Source: a virus
Direction: 5' to 3' (one strand)
Virus record (IMG/VR): IMGVR_UViG_3300031772_000009
Coordinates: 27,362 to 91,361 of that record
Length of the DNA stretch: 64,000 bases
The notes under the pieces are model-generated. The model saw only the letters and a list, made by a program, of their open reading frames with translations, made no database searches and had not been told where the DNA came from. This document shows positions 25,205 to 63,507 of this stretch, one piece after another (within the stretch, counting starts at the first letter, position 1; every line of letters begins with the position of its first letter). The position numbers and the translations under genes are program-made.

Positions 25205-25933
25205 AAGGTGAAATAATGACAGAATGCGAAACTTGTAAACTGAAAAGCAATTGCACACAAACCGATAAAGACTTATGCATAGACTTTTTTTTCAATCATG
25301 TAAAAACTAGGATGGTGATAACGTGAAAAGAGAAAAAGAAAAACCTTTAAAATTTGGATTCTGTTTTAACTGTGATGAGCATAGAATCTTAAACGAAAAT
25401 AATTTATGCTCTGAGTGTACTGAACAAAAGGACCAAAAAGAATATTCCGAAAAAGAAGGTTTAGCTGAGACAGTCTTAAACGAATTAGCTAAGACACACA
25501 ACGACTTTAAGACAGTACAAGACAGAAAATATACAGTCTACACAATATTTCGTTATCACAACACACCTTTTAAGGTTGAAAAGATGGTAGGTTCAAATCA
25601 AGTCTTACTTTATGACAATGAAGACAAGACCATATATGACAGTGATAATGAGACGCAAGAACAGAGAAACGACTTTAGAAGGTGGCTAGAGAAACAGATT
25701 ATTTGTTTACTGTTGTGTGTCTTACCTAATGGTTTAAACGACACAATAGGAACATAAAGAAGGTGAACACATGGGAAAAATAAGAATTATAGACAAGAAA
25801 CAGAAAAGAGAATTGATAGCTAAAGCCCATTTTTGGTTTGGTTCAACAGAAGACATATTTAGAGACGGTCTAATAATTGAGCATGACACAGAGAGAGCTT
25901 TAACTTACGTCTTTAAGCCTATTCCCTAAACAA

Positions 25934-27287: not shown

Positions 27288-27345
27288 TTTAATTCACGTT
27301 TATACAATGGAGAAACATTGTTAAAAGCTTTTTGTCAAGGCAACG

Positions 27346-27353
27346 TTTATATA
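27346..27353 (+). promoter_or_regulatory. archaeal TATA box of the tRNA-YunG-Mom operon
   Basis: TTTATATA about 25 nt upstream of the tRNA 5' end. Confidence 0.7.
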
Positions 27354-27377
27354 TGCCGTTTGCACTAGGTATTAAAT

Positions 27378-27457
27378 GCGGAGATAGTTCAAAAGTCCAG
27401 AACGGTTGGCATCCCGCCAACAGATGACAGACAACGGAATCTAGTCTCTCCGCACCA
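27378..27457 (+). tRNA. atypical tRNA-Gly(TCC)-like RNA with encoded CCA
   Basis: Acceptor GCGGAGA/TCTCCGC + A73 + CCA; D-stem GTTC/GAAC; anticodon stem GTTGG/CCAAC, loop CA-TCC-CG; T-arm lacks TTC (GACAGA-CAACGGAA-TCTAGTC). Confidence 0.8.
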
Positions 27458-27461
27458 AAAA

Positions 27462-27833
27462 GTGATTGACTTGACGACTGAACAATTGAGGGAACTTCGA
27501 GAGAAACTTGAGAAGTGTTGGTGTAAAGAAACAATTTGGCATAAAAATACTTGGAATCCAGACAAACTTTCTAAGGGTCAATGTTACGTTACCGCATTAC
27601 TAATTCAAAATATTTTGGGTGGAAGAATTTTTCATGGTACTGTTGAGAATGAAAATCATTACTGGAATGAACTTCCAGACGGGACAGAAGTAGATTTGAC
27701 TTCAGACCAATTTGACGATGGAGACGGAATTCATGTTCATCTAAAACATTTCTTTTTGAGTGTTGTCACTCCTAATAAAAGAAACAAACGTTACTTAATA
27801 TTGAAGGAGAAATATCTTGCCGTCAATAAGTAA
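27462..27833 (+). CDS. YunG-like protein (putative Cys-His-Asp papain/transglutaminase-like)
   Basis: GQCYVTALLIQ..LGG.I....HYWN....VDLTSDQF. Confidence 0.7.
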   Translation: MIDLTTEQLRELREKLEKCWCKETIWHKNTWNPDKLSKGQCYVTALLIQNILGGRIFHGTVENENHYWNELPDGTEVDLTSDQFDDGDGIHVHLKHFFLSVVTPNKRNKRYLILKEKYLAVNK

Positions 27834-28548
27834 AAGGACAGAACCATGTTTCGTCTGTGGAAAACAAGGTAAATATGGCGTGTTCGGAAGATATTACTGT
27901 GAAGAATGTTATGCTAAACGTCCCCACCGTGGTCATGGAAGCGGCGGCATGATTGCACTTTCAGAAGAGGAACTCCAATATGAACTCAACAAGGACATTT
28001 CATACCACGGCAAACCGTATTTTTTGAAAGTTCCTAAAGGACACAAAGTTTTTGCTAGTCTGTTTCTTTCACATTATCCAGAGAGTAAAGGCATAGTTGG
28101 AAGAAGCATAAACTATCTGATTCTATACGGAAATAGAATAGTTGGAATAATAGGACTGATGAATCCGCCTTACGCCATAGAATCAATAGACGACTATTTT
28201 GGAATAAACAAAGACAATCGTAATGCCAAAAACTTAGAGATAGCAAATAATCATGTGTTCAGACTGGTAAGCAACGAACCTAACCTTGCAAGCCGATGTT
28301 TGCGACTGTTAAGAAAGGTTGGAGTCAAGGATTGGCAAGACAAATACGGCGTGGTTCTGAAAGGTCTACTCACGTTTGTTGAGCCGCCGAGAAACGGAAT
28401 TTGTTATTTGGCTGACAACTGGAAATATCTTGGCATGACTAAAGGTTTCGGGACTACTCAACGTTCAAACAGATGGGAAAATAGAAAGTGGGTTAAGAAG
28501 TCTAAAAAACATATATTTGTTATCAAACTGGTCGTAGGTGTTCAATAA
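27817..28548 (+). CDS. Mom/DUF4338-like GNAT-fold putative DNA-modification enzyme with N-terminal Zn finger
   Basis: LSHY, ANNHVFRL, PNLASRCL, LTFVEP, GICYLADNWKYLGMTKG; CFVC...CEEC. Confidence 0.75.
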   Translation: MPSISKRTEPCFVCGKQGKYGVFGRYYCEECYAKRPHRGHGSGGMIALSEEELQYELNKDISYHGKPYFLKVPKGHKVFASLFLSHYPESKGIVGRSINYLILYGNRIVGIIGLMNPPYAIESIDDYFGINKDNRNAKNLEIANNHVFRLVSNEPNLASRCLRLLRKVGVKDWQDKYGVVLKGLLTFVEPPRNGICYLADNWKYLGMTKGFGTTQRSNRWENRKWVKKSKKHIFVIKLVVGVQ

Positions 28549-28778
28549 AAATGAACATATTGGAGTTTATTGAACACTGTAAGAAGTGTCCGAGACGAAG
28601 TAAATGTCATTTCATGGGTTGTATATTGGATGAAAGGTAACATAGGTATCGGAATAATCGTCAAATGTCAACGATGTGGCAAGTTGGGCGATGACCGTGA
28701 CATTTCAACCATATTATTTCCAGATGGAAGCGAGAAAACTCTATGTGAAGAATGTTTCCAAAAGGAGACTAAACAGAA

Positions 28779-29087
28779 ATGAAATGGGGATATATTGGAA
28801 GAAAACAAAGAAAGAGAGTTTTAGAGAGGGATGAACATAAATGTTTTATTTGTTGGCGAAAATATCAATTGACAATCCATCATCATTATGATTTTACTGG
28901 AAAGATTCTTCCTAAACGTGAAAATGTTTTATGTAATCTACCATACCATGAACCAAGAGATTGTGATTTAGTTACACTGTGTAAAGTTTGTCATGGAAAA
29001 ATCCAAGTTTGTGAGAAGGGAAGTCCTCTATATAGATTAGTTACTGAATATCTTGCCAACTTGAGTTTAAAGGAGAACCAAAAATGA
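28779..29087 (+). CDS. HNH endonuclease
   Basis: VLERDEHKCFIC...LTIHH...LVTLCKVCH. Confidence 0.8.
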   Translation: MKWGYIGRKQRKRVLERDEHKCFICWRKYQLTIHHHYDFTGKILPKRENVLCNLPYHEPRDCDLVTLCKVCHGKIQVCEKGSPLYRLVTEYLANLSLKENQK

Positions 29088-48827: not shown

Positions 48828-49772
48828 ATGCCAATCACACTTGATTATGATTCAACTGAAGTTAAAGTTCTAACAGTGAAACCTAAAGGCAAAGACGAAT
48901 TCATGTATCTGGTCTTCTTAGGCGACATTCATCTTGGACATACTGATTGTTCATTGAGTTATTTACAGAAAGCCGTAACATTGATTAAACGTCTATCAGA
49001 AAAACATGCAGTAGTTGTAATCTTGATGGGAGACTTGATTGAGACAGACAAAGACTATGCGGCTGAATTCATGATTGAAGACGTTATTGAGAGGACACAA
49101 GAACAATTCGTAACAGCAATGCAATATCTTGACCCAATAAAGCATCTTTGCAAGTTTGCTGTTTGGGGAAACCATGAAGAACGACTGATAAGAGATACTA
49201 AAAGCAAACGGATATTGGAAATGGTTGACATAACCAATCTATATGAAGTAATATTGAAGAAACTCAATCCAGAAATATATGTTGCCGCTCCCCAACGTGG
49301 AATTCTGCTTCAGTTGACTTGTGGAAAACAAAGTTACGACATACGATTTGCTCACGGAGCTTACGGTGGTTATAAACGTCCAGAACTTCAATGTGAACGT
49401 GAAAGCAACAACTATCCAATGGCGGCACTAATCGCTATGGGACATCATCACCAGAAATTCTGGAATGAACGAGTCAAAATGGGCTTGGAAAAGTCTCAAC
49501 GTGCCATATACCTTCAATATTGGCTTGGAACTGGAACATTCTTGAAATATCCGTCATATGCTGAACGAAAAAGTTACCCGATAAACGTGATGGGATGCCC
49601 AATAATCAAGGTATATGCAAACGTGCAACATCTCGAATATCTGAATAGTCCAGAGTTTCAACCACGGTTCATAAAGTCTGCTGGTGGACTACCGTTAATA
49701 CCCAGAGTATCTTTAAACGAGATGTTTAAAAGAAGGTATGGTGTCCACAAACTATGCCTCTACGAGAAATAA
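48828..49772 (+). CDS. calcineurin-like metallophosphoesterase
   Basis: GDIH, MGD, GNHE, AHG, GHHH. Confidence 0.85.
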   Translation: MPITLDYDSTEVKVLTVKPKGKDEFMYLVFLGDIHLGHTDCSLSYLQKAVTLIKRLSEKHAVVVILMGDLIETDKDYAAEFMIEDVIERTQEQFVTAMQYLDPIKHLCKFAVWGNHEERLIRDTKSKRILEMVDITNLYEVILKKLNPEIYVAAPQRGILLQLTCGKQSYDIRFAHGAYGGYKRPELQCERESNNYPMAALIAMGHHHQKFWNERVKMGLEKSQRAIYLQYWLGTGTFLKYPSYAERKSYPINVMGCPIIKVYANVQHLEYLNSPEFQPRFIKSAGGLPLIPRVSLNEMFKRRYGVHKLCLYEK

Positions 49773-54544: not shown

Positions 54545-56251
54545 TCATTTCCATTCTACTCCCTTAAAGAAATCGTCCTCTTTAATCTGTGTTTTAGATT
54601 GAGTTTGAAACTTGAGAAACTCCTCAAATATGCTTTCTCCACTTTCCTCAACTTCGAAACCATCCATGGAATAACATAACGAGTCGAAACTGTGGTCGTC
54701 AATCTTTCTTATCTTTCCATTTTTGTCCCATGCCAACTTTCTCAATGAAGCAGTAAGATACCAGAAAGCTTTTGGCACAATAATTTTGTGTCTCTCAACA
54801 AAATTGATGGTTCTATATACCCGTTCCGATTTCTCTTGTTCCGCTATAATATACACGGCGTATCCCTTCTCTTCTAACGGTTCATTCAAATGTTTTCCAG
54901 CCGCATTTGGGTCTGGAATAAACGTGTAAGTTTTATATTGCTTGCAAATTTCGTCTATCCAATCTGGTTTTTCCGTGTCCTTCATGCCTAATTGTTCATC
55001 GTTGAACAGAACGAAAACTACGTCTTTCTTTCTTCCGATAATAGTTAATGAACACGGAGCGTCTGAATATCCATAATCAAATCCCGCTTGCCTATCTATT
55101 ATATATTTCGTTGGGTCTTCTTCTGTGCCGAGTTCTCCAAGTTTCACAAGTTTACATTCTTTCCAATTGTAAGGTTCACAATTTTCACAGAGACTACATA
55201 TACAAACGTCTAAATCACCCTTTTTGAATACTGCTCCAGAAGCCATACTTGCTCCACCTAAAGCTTCACAGAGCCATTCTTCATCACTTTTGCTTTTTCG
55301 TTTATCACTTATTTCTTTTCGTGTCACCCACCATACATTGGGAATCCAATGGGTTGGGTCTTTATCAGTGTAAACTTTGTATGGGTCTGTTTCTCCATTA
55401 ATGTGTTTTGCTATAGACCATCTGTAAACTTTCTGGAAACCATACTTTTCTGGATTCTTCATGTAATCATAAAACTTTCCAAATATATAATGAACTGTGG
55501 AACTCAAAAGTAATACACTACATCTTTTTCCAGTAAGTTGCCACTGGACAGCCGCAACTGCTTTAGCACCATCTTCACTTTTTGATTCTGCTTCACATGC
55601 TTCGTCTATTTCCACAATGTTAACATGTGGTCCCCTTGCGGCTGTGGTACTACATGGTGGAAACTTTATTAGACTTCTCCCTAATGTTTTAGCGTAACGT
55701 CTTATTCCCTTCAACGACTTATAAATGATTTTTCCAATCATTGGAATATCCATTCTCCAATCATCAATATAATCTTGTATTAACTCTGACTGTTCACCAG
55801 AACCACCCATACAAGTTATTGAGATGTGGTCTTCCGTTGTTGTTTTCCAACAGTTGAATATTCCAAAAATAAAGGTTTTTCCAGCCCCTCTAGCCGCCGC
55901 CAATATAGCCGTAGTAATATTGTTTTTCCATAAATCAATTAGAAACTCTTTTTGTTCTTCAGACAAAATGAGATGGTAAGGAATACCATTGTCTCTGAAT
56001 TTAGGATGTTCTGTTCCTATAGAACAATCATCGTTACATGGTAAAATTGGATTATTATTCGGGTCATAATCTGGATGTATTGGAACGTCCATTGGACAAG
56101 TAAGCAAGTGTTCAGCAAACTCTACTGGTCCACGGTCTCTCCAACGTTTTTGCCAATCTTCTATTTCTTGTTTACTTAAATCTTTCTTATCAGTATGTCT
56201 ACGGAGTAGTTCTTTTCTTGCTCGGCTGTAATCATCTCTGGACGACATCAC
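54545..56251 (-). CDS. terL: terminase large subunit
   Basis: AARGAGKT, ARG..VEIDEA, SST, GFDYG, DDHSFDSLCY. Confidence 0.9.
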   Translation of the reverse strand: MMSSRDDYSRARKELLRRHTDKKDLSKQEIEDWQKRWRDRGPVEFAEHLLTCPMDVPIHPDYDPNNNPILPCNDDCSIGTEHPKFRDNGIPYHLILSEEQKEFLIDLWKNNITTAILAAARGAGKTFIFGIFNCWKTTTEDHISITCMGGSGEQSELIQDYIDDWRMDIPMIGKIIYKSLKGIRRYAKTLGRSLIKFPPCSTTAARGPHVNIVEIDEACEAESKSEDGAKAVAAVQWQLTGKRCSVLLLSSTVHYIFGKFYDYMKNPEKYGFQKVYRWSIAKHINGETDPYKVYTDKDPTHWIPNVWWVTRKEISDKRKSKSDEEWLCEALGGASMASGAVFKKGDLDVCICSLCENCEPYNWKECKLVKLGELGTEEDPTKYIIDRQAGFDYGYSDAPCSLTIIGRKKDVVFVLFNDEQLGMKDTEKPDWIDEICKQYKTYTFIPDPNAAGKHLNEPLEEKGYAVYIIAEQEKSERVYRTINFVERHKIIVPKAFWYLTASLRKLAWDKNGKIRKIDDHSFDSLCYSMDGFEVEESGESIFEEFLKFQTQSKTQIKEDDFFKGVEWK

Positions 56252-57939: not shown

Positions 57940-58848
57940 ATGATAAACTTTGAAGAAACGAACTATACCCTAATGACTAGCGATTTGACGGACACTTGCG
58001 ACTTAATTCCAATCATAATCTGGAAGGAAATAAATCTCGGTGCAACATACAAGTTCGTTTTCATGCAAGCCGTAGAGATAACCGATATTCTCGTAGGCGT
58101 TGATGGAAACAGCATTTGTGTGCCATATCTTGACCGAGACGAATTTACTGCTAGAAGCATAACTGAAGCCGCATTGGACAGTGGTGGATATGTCAAGGAC
58201 ATACTAGCACCAGAAACCATACTGATAGAGATTGGCGACATAATTTACAATGCCACAAGAATTTCTGATGTGGTCATGGAAGATTCACCTAGCCTCGGTT
58301 GGGTAAGAGCTTCACTTCAGAAGATGGGACAAGCCATCGCTCTGAGAATTGACGAAGACATCAGAGATGCCCTAGTTGCGGGTGCGGGAGCATTCGCCGC
58401 CGCCATAACTATAGGCACACTCTCATATGATGACGTTGTAGATGCAGTTGCCTCACTAAAAGGTGCTGGTTACTGGGCTGAAGACGGAGCATATCTGCTC
58501 TTTGTCAATGCCGCACAAGAAGCAGACCTTGTTAAAGACACAAGGTTCACTGACACAGCAAGATACAGTTCAGCAAACATTCCACTGCAAGGTGAGACTG
58601 GAAAATTTGCGTCATGTAAATGTTTGGTAACAGACATTACCATGGCTTGGGGAGCAGTTGCCTACGCATTGGTAGTTGCACCGCCAACCAACAAATATGG
58701 TCCAGCCGCAATGTTCGCATGGAAACGCCACGTAAAGCAAGAAGCATGGCGTGACGCACAAGAAGGTAGAGATGTCTATCTGCTTTCGTGTCGCTACGGT
58801 GTAGAGGTAAAGTTCGCTGACGCAATAGCGTTAATTAGCGATTGCTAG
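57940..58848 (+). CDS. major capsid protein, HK97 fold
   Basis: LIP..W..., TRIS...MED, MGQAIA.RIDE, E.GK, RYG C-terminal pattern; terminator after. Confidence 0.85.
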   Translation: MINFEETNYTLMTSDLTDTCDLIPIIIWKEINLGATYKFVFMQAVEITDILVGVDGNSICVPYLDRDEFTARSITEAALDSGGYVKDILAPETILIEIGDIIYNATRISDVVMEDSPSLGWVRASLQKMGQAIALRIDEDIRDALVAGAGAFAAAITIGTLSYDDVVDAVASLKGAGYWAEDGAYLLFVNAAQEADLVKDTRFTDTARYSSANIPLQGETGKFASCKCLVTDITMAWGAVAYALVVAPPTNKYGPAAMFAWKRHVKQEAWRDAQEGRDVYLLSCRYGVEVKFADAIALISDC

Positions 58849-62221: not shown

Positions 62222-62503
62222 TTGGTAAACATGAGTGAACAACCTAAACAAGAAGAACCGTACCCAGTACATGAAACAGTGAAAGTGTTGAAGGGCAAAA
62301 CAATCTATAAGAACAAGAAGTGGTGGTATGCGGTACTGTTGACTGAAGAGTTTGGACATAAGAAAGTCAAGGTTTACATGTGGTCTTGGAACGACAAAAA
62401 GAATGGTTGGACACGTAAACAACACATTGGAATCAACTTTAGAAAGAACTGGGAAGACATGAAAGTGATAATAGAAGAATATATGAAGGAGATTGAGAAC
62501 TAA
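62222..62503 (+). CDS. PC4/whirly-like putative ssDNA-binding protein
   Basis: W-rich beta strands (YMWSW...WTRKQ..GI) next to RadA. Confidence 0.4.
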   Translation: MVNMSEQPKQEEPYPVHETVKVLKGKTIYKNKKWWYAVLLTEEFGHKKVKVYMWSWNDKKNGWTRKQHIGINFRKNWEDMKVIIEEYMKEIEN

Positions 62504-63507
62504 TGTCTGAAGAAAAAGGTAAGAAACCAGAATCAAAAGAAAAGAAAACGGTAGAAGATAAGATACGAGATTTCTATTCTACTGTTGAGATGAAAGAAAT
62601 AACTGGTAAATTGGAAAAGTTGATAATGAAACCAGTTGAAGAACCACGAAAATCTTTGAGTAGCGAAAACAGTCCTAAACTGTTAACTGGAACAGTCCTT
62701 GACGACATTCTTGGTCGTGGTGGCATTTGTGCTGGAAGACTAATAGAGGTTTACGGAGAATATGGAAGTGGAAAAACACAGATTGCCAAAACATTGGCGG
62801 CTGAAGCAAGTCAACAAGGAACAGTCATCTACATTGACGCTGAATACACGTTTAGTCCAGAAAGACAAGAACAGATTTTGAAAGCCCGTGGATTAGACAT
62901 AGAGAAATTCTGGAAAAACCTTATTATATATCAACCTAAAGACTGGATGTATCAATTGGCGGCTATTCAACAGATTCCGTCCCAAATAGACTTGGACAAG
63001 GAAGGAAGAGAACCAATCAAACTCATAATAGTTGACTCGTTACTCGCATTGATAGACACATCAGAAGACTTTGAGGGAAGACAGAACCTTCCAGTCCGAA
63101 GCCGAGTGATAAGAACTCAAATGCTCGGAAAACTTAGGCAACTTGCCCGAACACATAACTGTGTAGTCTTCTTTACCAACCAAATCCAAGATGTTCCAGA
63201 AGCCCAAAAGTGGACTCCAATGTATATGAAACAGAAGGGCAAAGGTGGTCCAACAGTTAGTCATGTTCCAGACATAATACTATATCTTAGGAAAGCGGCT
63301 GGAGACACTAGACTTGCAAGACTGATGGATAGTTCAGAACTTCCAGTTGGAGAAAGAGTCTATATTATTAACGAGAAGGGAATAGACGATGTTCCACCAT
63401 CAGTGAAGGAAAAGATAGAGAAAGCATCTAAGAAAGAAGAAGAGAAGGAACTGGACAAAATAGACGAAGAAGCAGAAACTAAGAAATCAGATAGTGAACA
63501 AGAATGA
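62503..63507 (+). CDS. radA: RadA-like recombinase lacking the N-terminal HhH domain
   Basis: TG..LDDILG.GG, EVYGEYGSGKTQ, YIDAE.TF.PER, LIIVDS, TNQ, R.ARLMDS. Confidence 0.85.
   Translation: MSEEKGKKPESKEKKTVEDKIRDFYSTVEMKEITGKLEKLIMKPVEEPRKSLSSENSPKLLTGTVLDDILGRGGICAGRLIEVYGEYGSGKTQIAKTLAAEASQQGTVIYIDAEYTFSPERQEQILKARGLDIEKFWKNLIIYQPKDWMYQLAAIQQIPSQIDLDKEGREPIKLIIVDSLLALIDTSEDFEGRQNLPVRSRVIRTQMLGKLRQLARTHNCVVFFTNQIQDVPEAQKWTPMYMKQKGKGGPTVSHVPDIILYLRKAAGDTRLARLMDSSELPVGERVYIINEKGIDDVPPSVKEKIEKASKKEEEKELDKIDEEAETKKSDSEQE

Follow-up and report, generated by a model that had tools for sequence, protein, structure and literature searches.

A viral tRNA-Gly-like RNA stripped of decoding features and linked to a Mom-like DUF4338/DruA-family GNAT is a candidate private glycyl carrier

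The complete 91,361-bp IMG/VR virus record IMGVR_UViG_3300031772_000009, which has direct terminal repeats, carries a small module in which a gene for an RNA resembling tRNA-Gly is followed by genes for a YunG-family protein and for a GNAT enzyme of the DUF4338/DruA family. We analysed bases 27362-91361 of this record, a stretch of 64,000 nucleotides that is referred to below as the window and whose own numbering is used throughout. A first-pass annotation, made from the sequence alone, had described a TATA box, a tRNA-like gene, a YunG open reading frame (ORF) beginning four nucleotides further on and an overlapping GNAT ORF, and all four elements lie where it had placed them:

27340..27353, plus strand: archaeal-type promoter recognized by sequence, with its function predicted; GCAACG followed by the TATA box TTTATATA (27346-27353)
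27378..27457, plus strand: tRNA-Gly-like RNA of 80 nucleotides, recognized by sequence, covariance model R1 and covariation
27462..27833, plus strand: YunG-family protein of 123 amino acids with a GTG start (Pfam PF24585, E = 3.1e-28)
27817..28548, plus strand: DUF4338/DruA-family GNAT of 243 amino acids with a TTG start (Pfam PF14236, E = 8.2e-15)

The TATA box TTTATATA precedes the first nucleotide (G1) of the RNA by 24 nucleotides, and the same promoter layout, consisting of AAC, a TATA box, a spacer of 22-24 nucleotides and TAAT immediately before G1, is found at the related loci L009, L013, L019 and L255, where the last has the version TTTAAATA. Because the TATA box lies 22-24 nucleotides ahead of a conserved TAAT-G1 junction in the window's clade, the 5′ end of the RNA may be the transcription start. 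Four A nucleotides separate the CCA end of the RNA (27457) from the GTG start of YunG (27462). No terminator or T-tract is present between the RNA and the YunG ORF in the window, and therefore read-through from the RNA into both ORFs is plausible. The TTG start of the GNAT at 27817 is preceded by AAGGAG, and the two ORFs overlap by 17 nucleotides.

The RNA adopts a cloverleaf with a 7-bp acceptor stem, a 4-bp D stem, a 5-bp anticodon stem and a T stem composed of 3 bp, a bulged A and another 3 bp. A minimum-free-energy fold of the single sequence yields a rod, which was rejected in favour of the covarying cloverleaf. The acceptor stem includes the pairs G1-C72, C2-G71 and G3-C70 and is followed by A73 and an encoded CCA, whereas the anticodon loop, CATCCCG, places UCC at positions 34-36. 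Glycine identity elements have been defined by experiment, with the Aeropyrum pernix set comprising C35, C36, C2-G71 and G3-C70 (PMC9976931), and the archaeal/eukaryal set (G1-C72, C2-G71, G3-C70, C35, C36 and A73) is complete in the window RNA. Missing are the features of a decoding tRNA. Position 33 is A rather than U, position 37 is C rather than a purine, the D loop (AAAAGTCCA) is without the GG of G18-G19, the 8-nucleotide T loop (CAACGGAA) is without the TTC of the TTCRANY motif, and the T stem is not a regular 5-bp helix. The first-pass annotation had read both the glycine identity elements and the absence of decoding features from the letters, and both readings are borne out. It had also expected a pseudogene call or a low score from tRNA finders. 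Neither the window nor the rest of the 91-kb genome yields a tRNA to ARAGORN, which likewise calls nothing at the element in L001-L006, and the Rfam tRNA model RF00005 yields no match in the window at the gathering threshold or at E values up to 10. Our covariance model R1, by comparison, gives the window RNA 77 bits (E = 3e-16).

Model R1 was built from a seed alignment of six sequences, in which 97.6% of the cells are paired and double changes occur in 11 of 21 pairs, with slid controls reaching 42-50%. Homologues of the GNAT were gathered from viral, metagenome and genome contigs, and R1 was then run on their loci and on whole viral records to give a total of 13 distinct sequences: those of the window, L009, L010, L013, L019, L016, L017, L055, L080, L235, L255 and L257, plus that of one virus represented by L004, L006, L028, L096 and L098. 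In the final alignment, the cloverleaf is paired in 96% of cells and compensatory changes on both sides are seen in 15 of the 21 pairs, values that are matched by 0 of 500 shuffles. Given this pairing across 13 homologues, these double changes and the shuffled controls, the window RNA is a real element, far beyond chance. Ten further viral records with a DruA-like gene, mostly fragments, were searched with the same model. Among the further records, G001 held L255, another held L257, and G002 and G003 gave only ordinary tRNA-cluster matches; eight further viral records with a DruA-like gene gave no R1 match. A tight DNA pattern for the window's clade had no match in IMG/VR, and R1 had none at E values up to 1 in 80 kb around 16 other viral YunG genes, which served as a control.

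The nucleotides that specify glycine are held nearly constant in this family. G1-C72, C2-G71 and C35-C36 are invariant in all 13 members, and G3-C70 is present in 12 of them, with a G-U pair in the other. Position 34 is U, G or A depending on the member, as expected if only glycyl-tRNA synthetase (GlyRS) matters. The nucleotide at position 73 is A in the window's clade, which has the TATA-box promoters, and U in L004, L055, L235 and L257. A73 is characteristic of archaeal/eukaryal-type glycylation systems and U73 of bacterial ones (PMC3990555, PMC9976931), and the split within the family matches this rule. The L235 contig, whose RNA carries U73, has been binned as a Woesebacteria metagenome-assembled genome.

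The features used in decoding drift by comparison. Anticodon loops of 6, 7 or 8 nucleotides are found among the members (TATTCCAA is present in both L004 and L257), U33 is retained in five of the 13, and G18-G19 survives only in L016, L017, L235 and L257, the same four that have a T loop of the TTCRANY type. None of the 13 has a canonical, fully paired 5-bp T stem, and in nearly all of them a single A or G bulges from the 3′ strand of the T stem, two to three pairs from the acceptor stem. This bulge is present even in the near-canonical L016, L017 and L235 and, as judged by eye, in L255 and L257, and the T arm of L080 is irregular in a manner that allows no clean single bulge to be placed. As a control set, a loose DNA pattern applied to viral contigs provided 118 loci with 541 ordinary tRNAs in 1.02 Mb, of which 484 have T stems with five of five pairs in the canonical register, including 46 of the 50 tRNA-Gly (Fisher p = 2e-10 for 0 of 13 members versus 46 of 50 ordinary viral tRNA-Gly). 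Among the members, only L016 (41.8 bits) and L235 (29.6 bits) pass the Rfam tRNA model, and ARAGORN calls L016 and L017 as tRNA-Gly(GCC). The family spans near-normal tRNA-Gly to the strongly degenerate window RNA, with glycine identity and an irregular T stem kept throughout. Directly upstream of the L019 tRNA-Gly-like gene is a GC-rich, apparently structured non-coding stretch (L019:1200-1650) that includes a second hairpin (1511-1589), whose acceptor stem resembles that of a tRNA and which ends in TCCA, and that has no Rfam match at E values up to 0.1.

The recurrence of a degenerate tRNA-Gly beside homologues of the GNAT, which the first-pass annotation had proposed to look for, is found in full, since the RNA is of the glycine type in 13 of 13 members and is located on the same strand as the DruA-like gene in 13 of 13. 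The distance between the two ranges from 23 nucleotides to 3.2 kb. The RNA is directly upstream of the DruA-like gene in L019 (18 nucleotides before its start), L017 and L013. In the window, L009 and L010, YunG intervenes between the upstream RNA and the DruA-like gene, as an HNH gene does in L016, and in L080, L235, L004 and L255 the RNA is 0.2-3.2 kb upstream. It is downstream in L055 and L257, by 105 nucleotides in one and 2.8 kb in the other. Because the GNATs linked to these RNAs are as close as 92% and as distant as 37% in identity to that of the window, the linkage spans the family. HNH genes are recurrent neighbours of DruA-like genes, and the HNH endonuclease gene that has been inserted between the tRNA-Gly and DruA-like genes of L016 (L016:1972-2460) has a TATA box of its own.

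When the first 87 loci were scanned by ARAGORN without regard to isotype, other tRNAs were confined to the multi-tRNA clusters of L011, L078 and L083/L087 and to single genes on short contigs, namely a tRNA-Thr in L077 and a tRNA-Met in L081. These other tRNAs have normal T arms, including the regular tRNAs of the related L011 cluster. No DruA-like or YunG gene is present in the 118 tRNA-rich control loci. Shortened mimics of tRNA-Gly were sought around DruA-like genes of 36-43% identity by a scan and by reading 160 nucleotides downstream, and none was found.

The first-pass annotation had described the GNAT as Mom-like and yet nearer to the DUF4338 branch. Its second point is upheld by the PF14236 match (55.2 bits against a cutoff of 27, residues 76-219), and most of the 89 homologues that were collected carry this domain. 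DUF4338 has been classed as a GNAT fold by the Aravind laboratory and is found in DNA-directed defence, in type I Druantia and in DndF fusions (PMC10853773). The protein joins an N-terminal CxxC...CxxC zinc ribbon (approximately 27817-27951), in which C11, C14 and C28 are invariant and C31 is present in at least 90% of rows, to a GNAT domain at residues 64-243 (28006-28545). Two small zinc-ribbon proteins with similar CxxC pairs flank the module, at 28570-28782 (DUF7685) and at 25323-25757; the neighbours of the GNAT gene in the window are YunG, this DUF7685 protein and an HNH-like ORF.

The likeness to Mom is upheld at the level of fold and not at the level of family profiles, the latter being taken up below. 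When an AlphaFold 2 model of the GNAT (predicted local distance difference test score, pLDDT, 85.7) is compared with solved structures, Foldseek ranks Mu Mom (8bv8) first (E = 2.8e-6), as does VIA-align (Z 14.2, root-mean-square deviation 3.9, 163 aligned residues), with other GNATs at Z values of 12.9 or less and 135-146 aligned residues. Structures of TacT and AtaT are absent from the 50 best structural matches. Over 125 columns, hhalign places H86-Y87 of the GNAT opposite H58-Y59 of Mom, S159-R160 opposite S124-R125, and Y197, which is part of a G-x-x-Y-x-A-x-N-[WF] motif (with W in the window), opposite Y159. In Mom, S124 is essential and the H58A, Y59A and Y159A substitutions drastically reduce activity (PMC13219725). 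The nearest neighbours of the GNAT by protein language model are viral DruA clusters followed by clusters containing Mom, which we treat as a lead only. A search of PDB sequences with the GNAT profile returned only weak zinc-ribbon matches, PHROGs and NCBIfam contain no family for either the GNAT or the YunG protein, and the DruA1 model of PADLOC reaches only E = 0.0044 on the GNAT.

The neighbours most commonly found next to DruA-like genes are DNA methylases (N6_N4_Mtase in 8 of 87), and C5 methylase, ParB_N and UPF0020 genes are also seen. At four loci (L111, L030, L071 and L064), a DruA-like gene adjoins a Mom-family gene whose product is 26-30% identical to Mu Mom, such that some phages carry both GNAT types side by side. 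Because of these methylase and Mom-family neighbours, the gene context favours DNA as the likely target of the DruA-like enzymes. Our search of the literature found no paper connecting DUF4338/DruA with tRNA.

The remaining gene of the module had been described as encoding a YunG-like protein with Cys, His and Asp residues, a description with which the Pfam match agrees and which is extended by an alignment of 23 sequences in which G39, C41, T44, H66, E76, D78, T80 and Q83 are invariant. In the AlphaFold 2 model (pLDDT 94.8), C41 begins a helix (41-52), H66 is part of a strand (64-70), and E76 and D78 are nearby. Foldseek finds nothing at E values up to 0.001 with this model. VIA-align returns weak matches, the best of which is 2hly (Z 7.0), with Z values of 4-5.5 for SseI, LapG, PeiW, protein glutaminase and arylamine N-acetyltransferases, and nearly all of these are papain/transglutaminase-like thiol enzymes, including deamidases. 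YunG is a putative small thiol enzyme of the papain/transglutaminase-like type with Cys-His-acid residues.

The proposal that YunG genes recur with the GNAT was confirmed only in part. YunG adjoins the GNAT gene at 7 of approximately 104 DruA-like loci, in three gene orders, and the tRNA-like RNA is present at each of these loci that has a sufficiently long flank. Sixteen other viral YunG loci, however, have neither the GNAT nor the RNA. Because of this distribution, YunG is, as judged from gene context, a facultative accessory. One might guess that it deamidates or trims the adduct, relays the acyl group or performs an editing step. In a relative, a protein of 149 amino acids (P0087) has a YunG domain joined to the last ~30 residues of a DruA-like protein, probably as the result of a deletion that fused the two overlapping genes.

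The best-supported explanation for these observations, and one that we consider probable, is that the virus encodes a dedicated, non-decoding tRNA-Gly that serves as a glycyl carrier for its Mom-like GNAT. The RNA and the two ORFs would be transcribed together from the TATA box. Host GlyRS would charge the 80-nucleotide RNA, which retains the elements required by this enzyme (the pairs 1-72, 2-71 and 3-70, C35, C36, A73 and the CCA end) but no longer those required by EF-1A and the ribosome (U33, a purine at position 37, the T- and D-loop motifs and a regular T stem). The charged RNA would be excluded from translation, and the irregularity of the T stem might serve to exclude it, to identify it to the enzyme, or to do both. 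The GNAT would then take the glycyl ester as its acyl donor, as Mu Mom does with Gly-tRNAGly. The likeliest acceptor, by analogy with Mom, is the virus's own DNA, which would be shielded from host nucleases. The first-pass annotation had named Gly-tRNA(Gly) as the donor for Mom, which is correct (PMC13219725). All predictions of its private-carrier proposal that could be evaluated in silico held up, and host charging, shielding from translation and the DNA acceptor are the steps that we infer.

Several observations weigh against this explanation. Odd anticodon loops might also impair GlyRS, a free CCA end would have to be released from a transcript that continues into the ORFs, and the acceptor could be something other than DNA. 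The margin of Mom over other GNATs in the structural comparison is modest (~1.3 Z units). The GNAT has no match to the Pfam Mom family PF25680 at E values up to 1 (Mu Mom itself scores 2.1e-75), and its hhalign comparison is weak both with the Mom family alignment (probability 7.5%, E = 0.0046) and with Mu Mom alone. Model R1 was seeded with glycine-type RNAs, so its matches lean toward glycine, and the 13 members are partly related, as evident by the 89% identity between the window and L009 sequences and by the kinship of L016 and L017. Finally, no tRNA-like gene is found within 2.5 kb at approximately 90 of the ~104 distinct DruA-like loci. A private carrier is therefore not obligatory, and viruses that have a DruA-like gene but no linked RNA may use host tRNA-Gly, by analogy with Mu.

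Other explanations differ in which part of this scheme they replace. The RNA might indeed carry glycine for the GNAT, but with an acceptor other than DNA, be it a protein, a lipid, a small molecule or part of the cell wall or envelope, in the manner of the Fem ligases, L/F-transferase, MprF and PacB. Most known aminoacyl-tRNA-dependent enzymes with a GNAT fold do act on acceptors other than DNA (PMC13219725), the sole precedent for a non-proteinogenic tRNA-Gly feeds peptidoglycan synthesis (PMC7826273), and this virus encodes many glycosyltransferases and sugar enzymes. We nevertheless find a non-DNA acceptor unlikely, given that the best structural match is Mom rather than FemX or L/F-transferase, that DNA methylases and Mom genes are the commonest neighbours of DruA-like genes, and that DUF4338 is otherwise known from DNA-directed defence in type I Druantia and DndF fusions (PMC10853773). 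A more radical departure is that the RNA never carries an amino acid and functions in cis as a tRNA-shaped leader, which either would be cut by RNase P or RNase Z to mature the YunG/GNAT mRNA or would stabilise or regulate this mRNA. Processing signals that resemble tRNAs are known elsewhere, and the RNA ends 4 nucleotides before YunG in the window and 18-40 nucleotides before the first ORF in L019, L010 and L017, with no terminator. However, the acceptor and T arms would suffice for such a signal, and yet there is no variation in C35, C36 or the glycine acceptor pairs, and N73 tracks the rule for the host type of GlyRS. Moreover, the RNA of L255, L257, L004 and L016 is separated from the GNAT gene by 0.5-3.2 kb, follows that gene, or precedes a further promoter. 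Because of these positions, placement immediately upstream is not conserved whereas glycine identity is, and we judge a role in cis to be improbable.

Altered anticodon loops are a known means by which phage tRNAs escape anticodon nucleases, and this virus has RNA-ligase and phosphoesterase domains that could repair tRNA. The RNA might be a target or a decoy, either because the GNAT acts on Gly-tRNA in a TacT-like manner or because the RNA soaks up a host anticodon nuclease or GNAT toxin; TacT-type GNATs do read tRNA-Gly, via G71 and U73 (PMC9976931). This seems to us decidedly improbable. TacT and AtaT fall outside the 50 best structural matches, among which Mom is first, a decoy would not be required to accompany one enzyme family on its strand in 13 of 13 cases, and the DNA-modification neighbours do not suit a translation toxin. 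The remaining explanation, that the RNA is an ordinary, divergent decoder tRNA-Gly or the remnant of an attachment site whose adjacency to the GNAT gene is meaningless, we hold to be very improbable. It is true that viruses often carry tRNAs and that the near-canonical members noted above are recognized by ARAGORN (L016 and L017) or pass the Rfam threshold (L016 and L235). The window RNA, however, is without U33, a purine at 37, G18-G19 and the T-loop motif, its relatives include RNAs with 6- or 8-nucleotide anticodon loops, and the canonical T arm is fully paired in 0 of 13. The element is also the sole tRNA-like gene of the complete 91-kb genome, in which ARAGORN finds no other tRNA, and 13 of 13 members agree in both glycine type and strand. 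An attachment-site remnant was rejected on the grounds that the element is internal and conserved over its full length, that the genome has direct terminal repeats, and that no integrase family is listed in its Pfam tallies. The four alternatives fit less well than a glycyl carrier for DNA modification because none accounts at once for a glycine identity that is invariant, decoding features that drift and a linkage that is specific to one strand.

A broader and more tentative proposal is that aminoacyl-tRNA-dependent hypermodification of DNA is the shared activity of the stand-alone DUF4338/DruA GNATs of archaeal and bacterial viruses, many of which would draw on a private, bulge-marked, non-decoding tRNA-Gly that separates their glycine supply from translation. 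By extension, DruA of type I Druantia might be a Gly-tRNA-dependent enzyme that marks DNA.

The genome in which the module resides is, as judged from its genes, that of a tailed virus, with tail proteins also encoded in the window:

54548-56251, minus strand: large terminase
57940-58845: capsid protein
62503-63504: RadA/Rad51-type recombinase (Rad51 5e-38 versus RecA 1.5e-17)

The host is likely archaeal because of this RadA/Rad51-type recombinase, a LonB-type protease whose closest protein-atlas clusters are archaeal, the TATA-box promoters, and a DUF2153 domain in the Pfam tally of the virus. All public sequencing runs containing the window stretch are of sediment or groundwater DNA. No GlyRS is among the Pfam families listed for the genome. 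The window also encodes an RNA ligase domain (PF09414, 1.2e-7 in the Pfam tally), a calcineurin-like phosphoesterase (Metallophos, 48828-49769) and a NUDIX protein, and the ligase and phosphoesterase could form a pair that repairs RNA or tRNA. The initial 27 kb of the record (G000:C1:1-27361, loci L259 and L260), which lie outside the window, encode many glycosyltransferases, including GT4-conflict, together with sugar-nucleotide epimerase/dehydratase, PIG-L and polysaccharide deacetylase domains, the N-terminal domain of a dATP/dGTP diphosphohydrolase and a nucleoside 2-deoxyribosyltransferase domain. This region may be a second module for modification of DNA or of the virion.

That a virus uses a charged tRNA to hypermodify DNA was reported for Mom in 2026 (PMC13219725). 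If our explanation is correct, the RNA described here would be the first dedicated non-ribosomal tRNA for nucleic-acid modification, and the second natural system based on a non-proteinogenic tRNA-Gly, after the staphylococcal Fem pathway. The genomic linkage also provides a testable co-substrate for the large DUF4338/DruA family, to which the first gene of type I Druantia belongs. The bulge conserved in the T stem points to a simple way in which nature may keep an aminoacyl-tRNA from translation, one that could be useful in tRNA engineering, and the A73/U73 split might serve as an internal marker of host domain for uncultured viruses.

Among known systems, Mom of phage Mu offers the closest comparison. 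It moves glycine from Gly-tRNAGly onto N6 of adenine in double-stranded DNA, and it accepts all host tRNA-Gly isoacceptors, with no private tRNA reported (PMC13219725). Like Mom, which is its best solved structural match, the window GNAT is a viral single-domain enzyme with the GNAT fold, although its link to tRNA-Gly is genomic where that of Mom is biochemical. Unlike Mom (PF25680), it belongs to PF14236, has no significant profile match to the Mom family and has an additional zinc ribbon at its N terminus. Mom scavenges host tRNA-Gly, whereas the window virus encodes a tRNA-Gly-like RNA of its own as a candidate carrier.

In Staphylococcus aureus, non-proteogenic (NP) tRNA-Gly species feed FmhB, FemA and FemB, and changes in their D and T arms make them poorer substrates for EF-Tu and the ribosome while favouring the aminoacyl transferases with a GNAT fold (PMC7826273). 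The window RNA resembles these tRNAs in that GlyRS identity is kept while the D and T arms are altered. The NP tRNAs, however, are cellular, bacterial, devoted to peptidoglycan and seen by tRNA finders as regular cloverleafs, whereas the window RNA is viral and far more degenerate, with its bulged T stem and the 6-8 nucleotide anticodon loops of its family, and its gene is linked to that of the presumed enzyme. Because the NP lineage is confined to staphylococci (PMC7826273), the window RNA is best regarded as an analogue of these tRNAs and not as a member.

DruA of type I Druantia shares PF14236 and the GNAT fold with the window protein, which by contrast stands alone in a viral genome, is 243 rather than ~400 amino acids long and has no DruB-E neighbours; the locus is not a type I Druantia system, in which DruA occurs with DruB-DruE in a cellular genome. 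The TacT and AtaT toxins are likewise GNAT enzymes that read Gly-tRNAGly via elements of the acceptor end, but they use acetyl-CoA to block the amino group of the aminoacyl-tRNA, which is their substrate and not a donor, they occur as toxin-antitoxin pairs, and they are not top structural matches of the window GNAT. Relative to the literature, the module is perhaps best viewed as a variant that combines the tRNA-dependent DNA modification of Mom with the non-proteogenic tRNA-Gly of staphylococci, to which the window adds a probably archaeal A73 clade, a shared T-stem bulge and a link to YunG.

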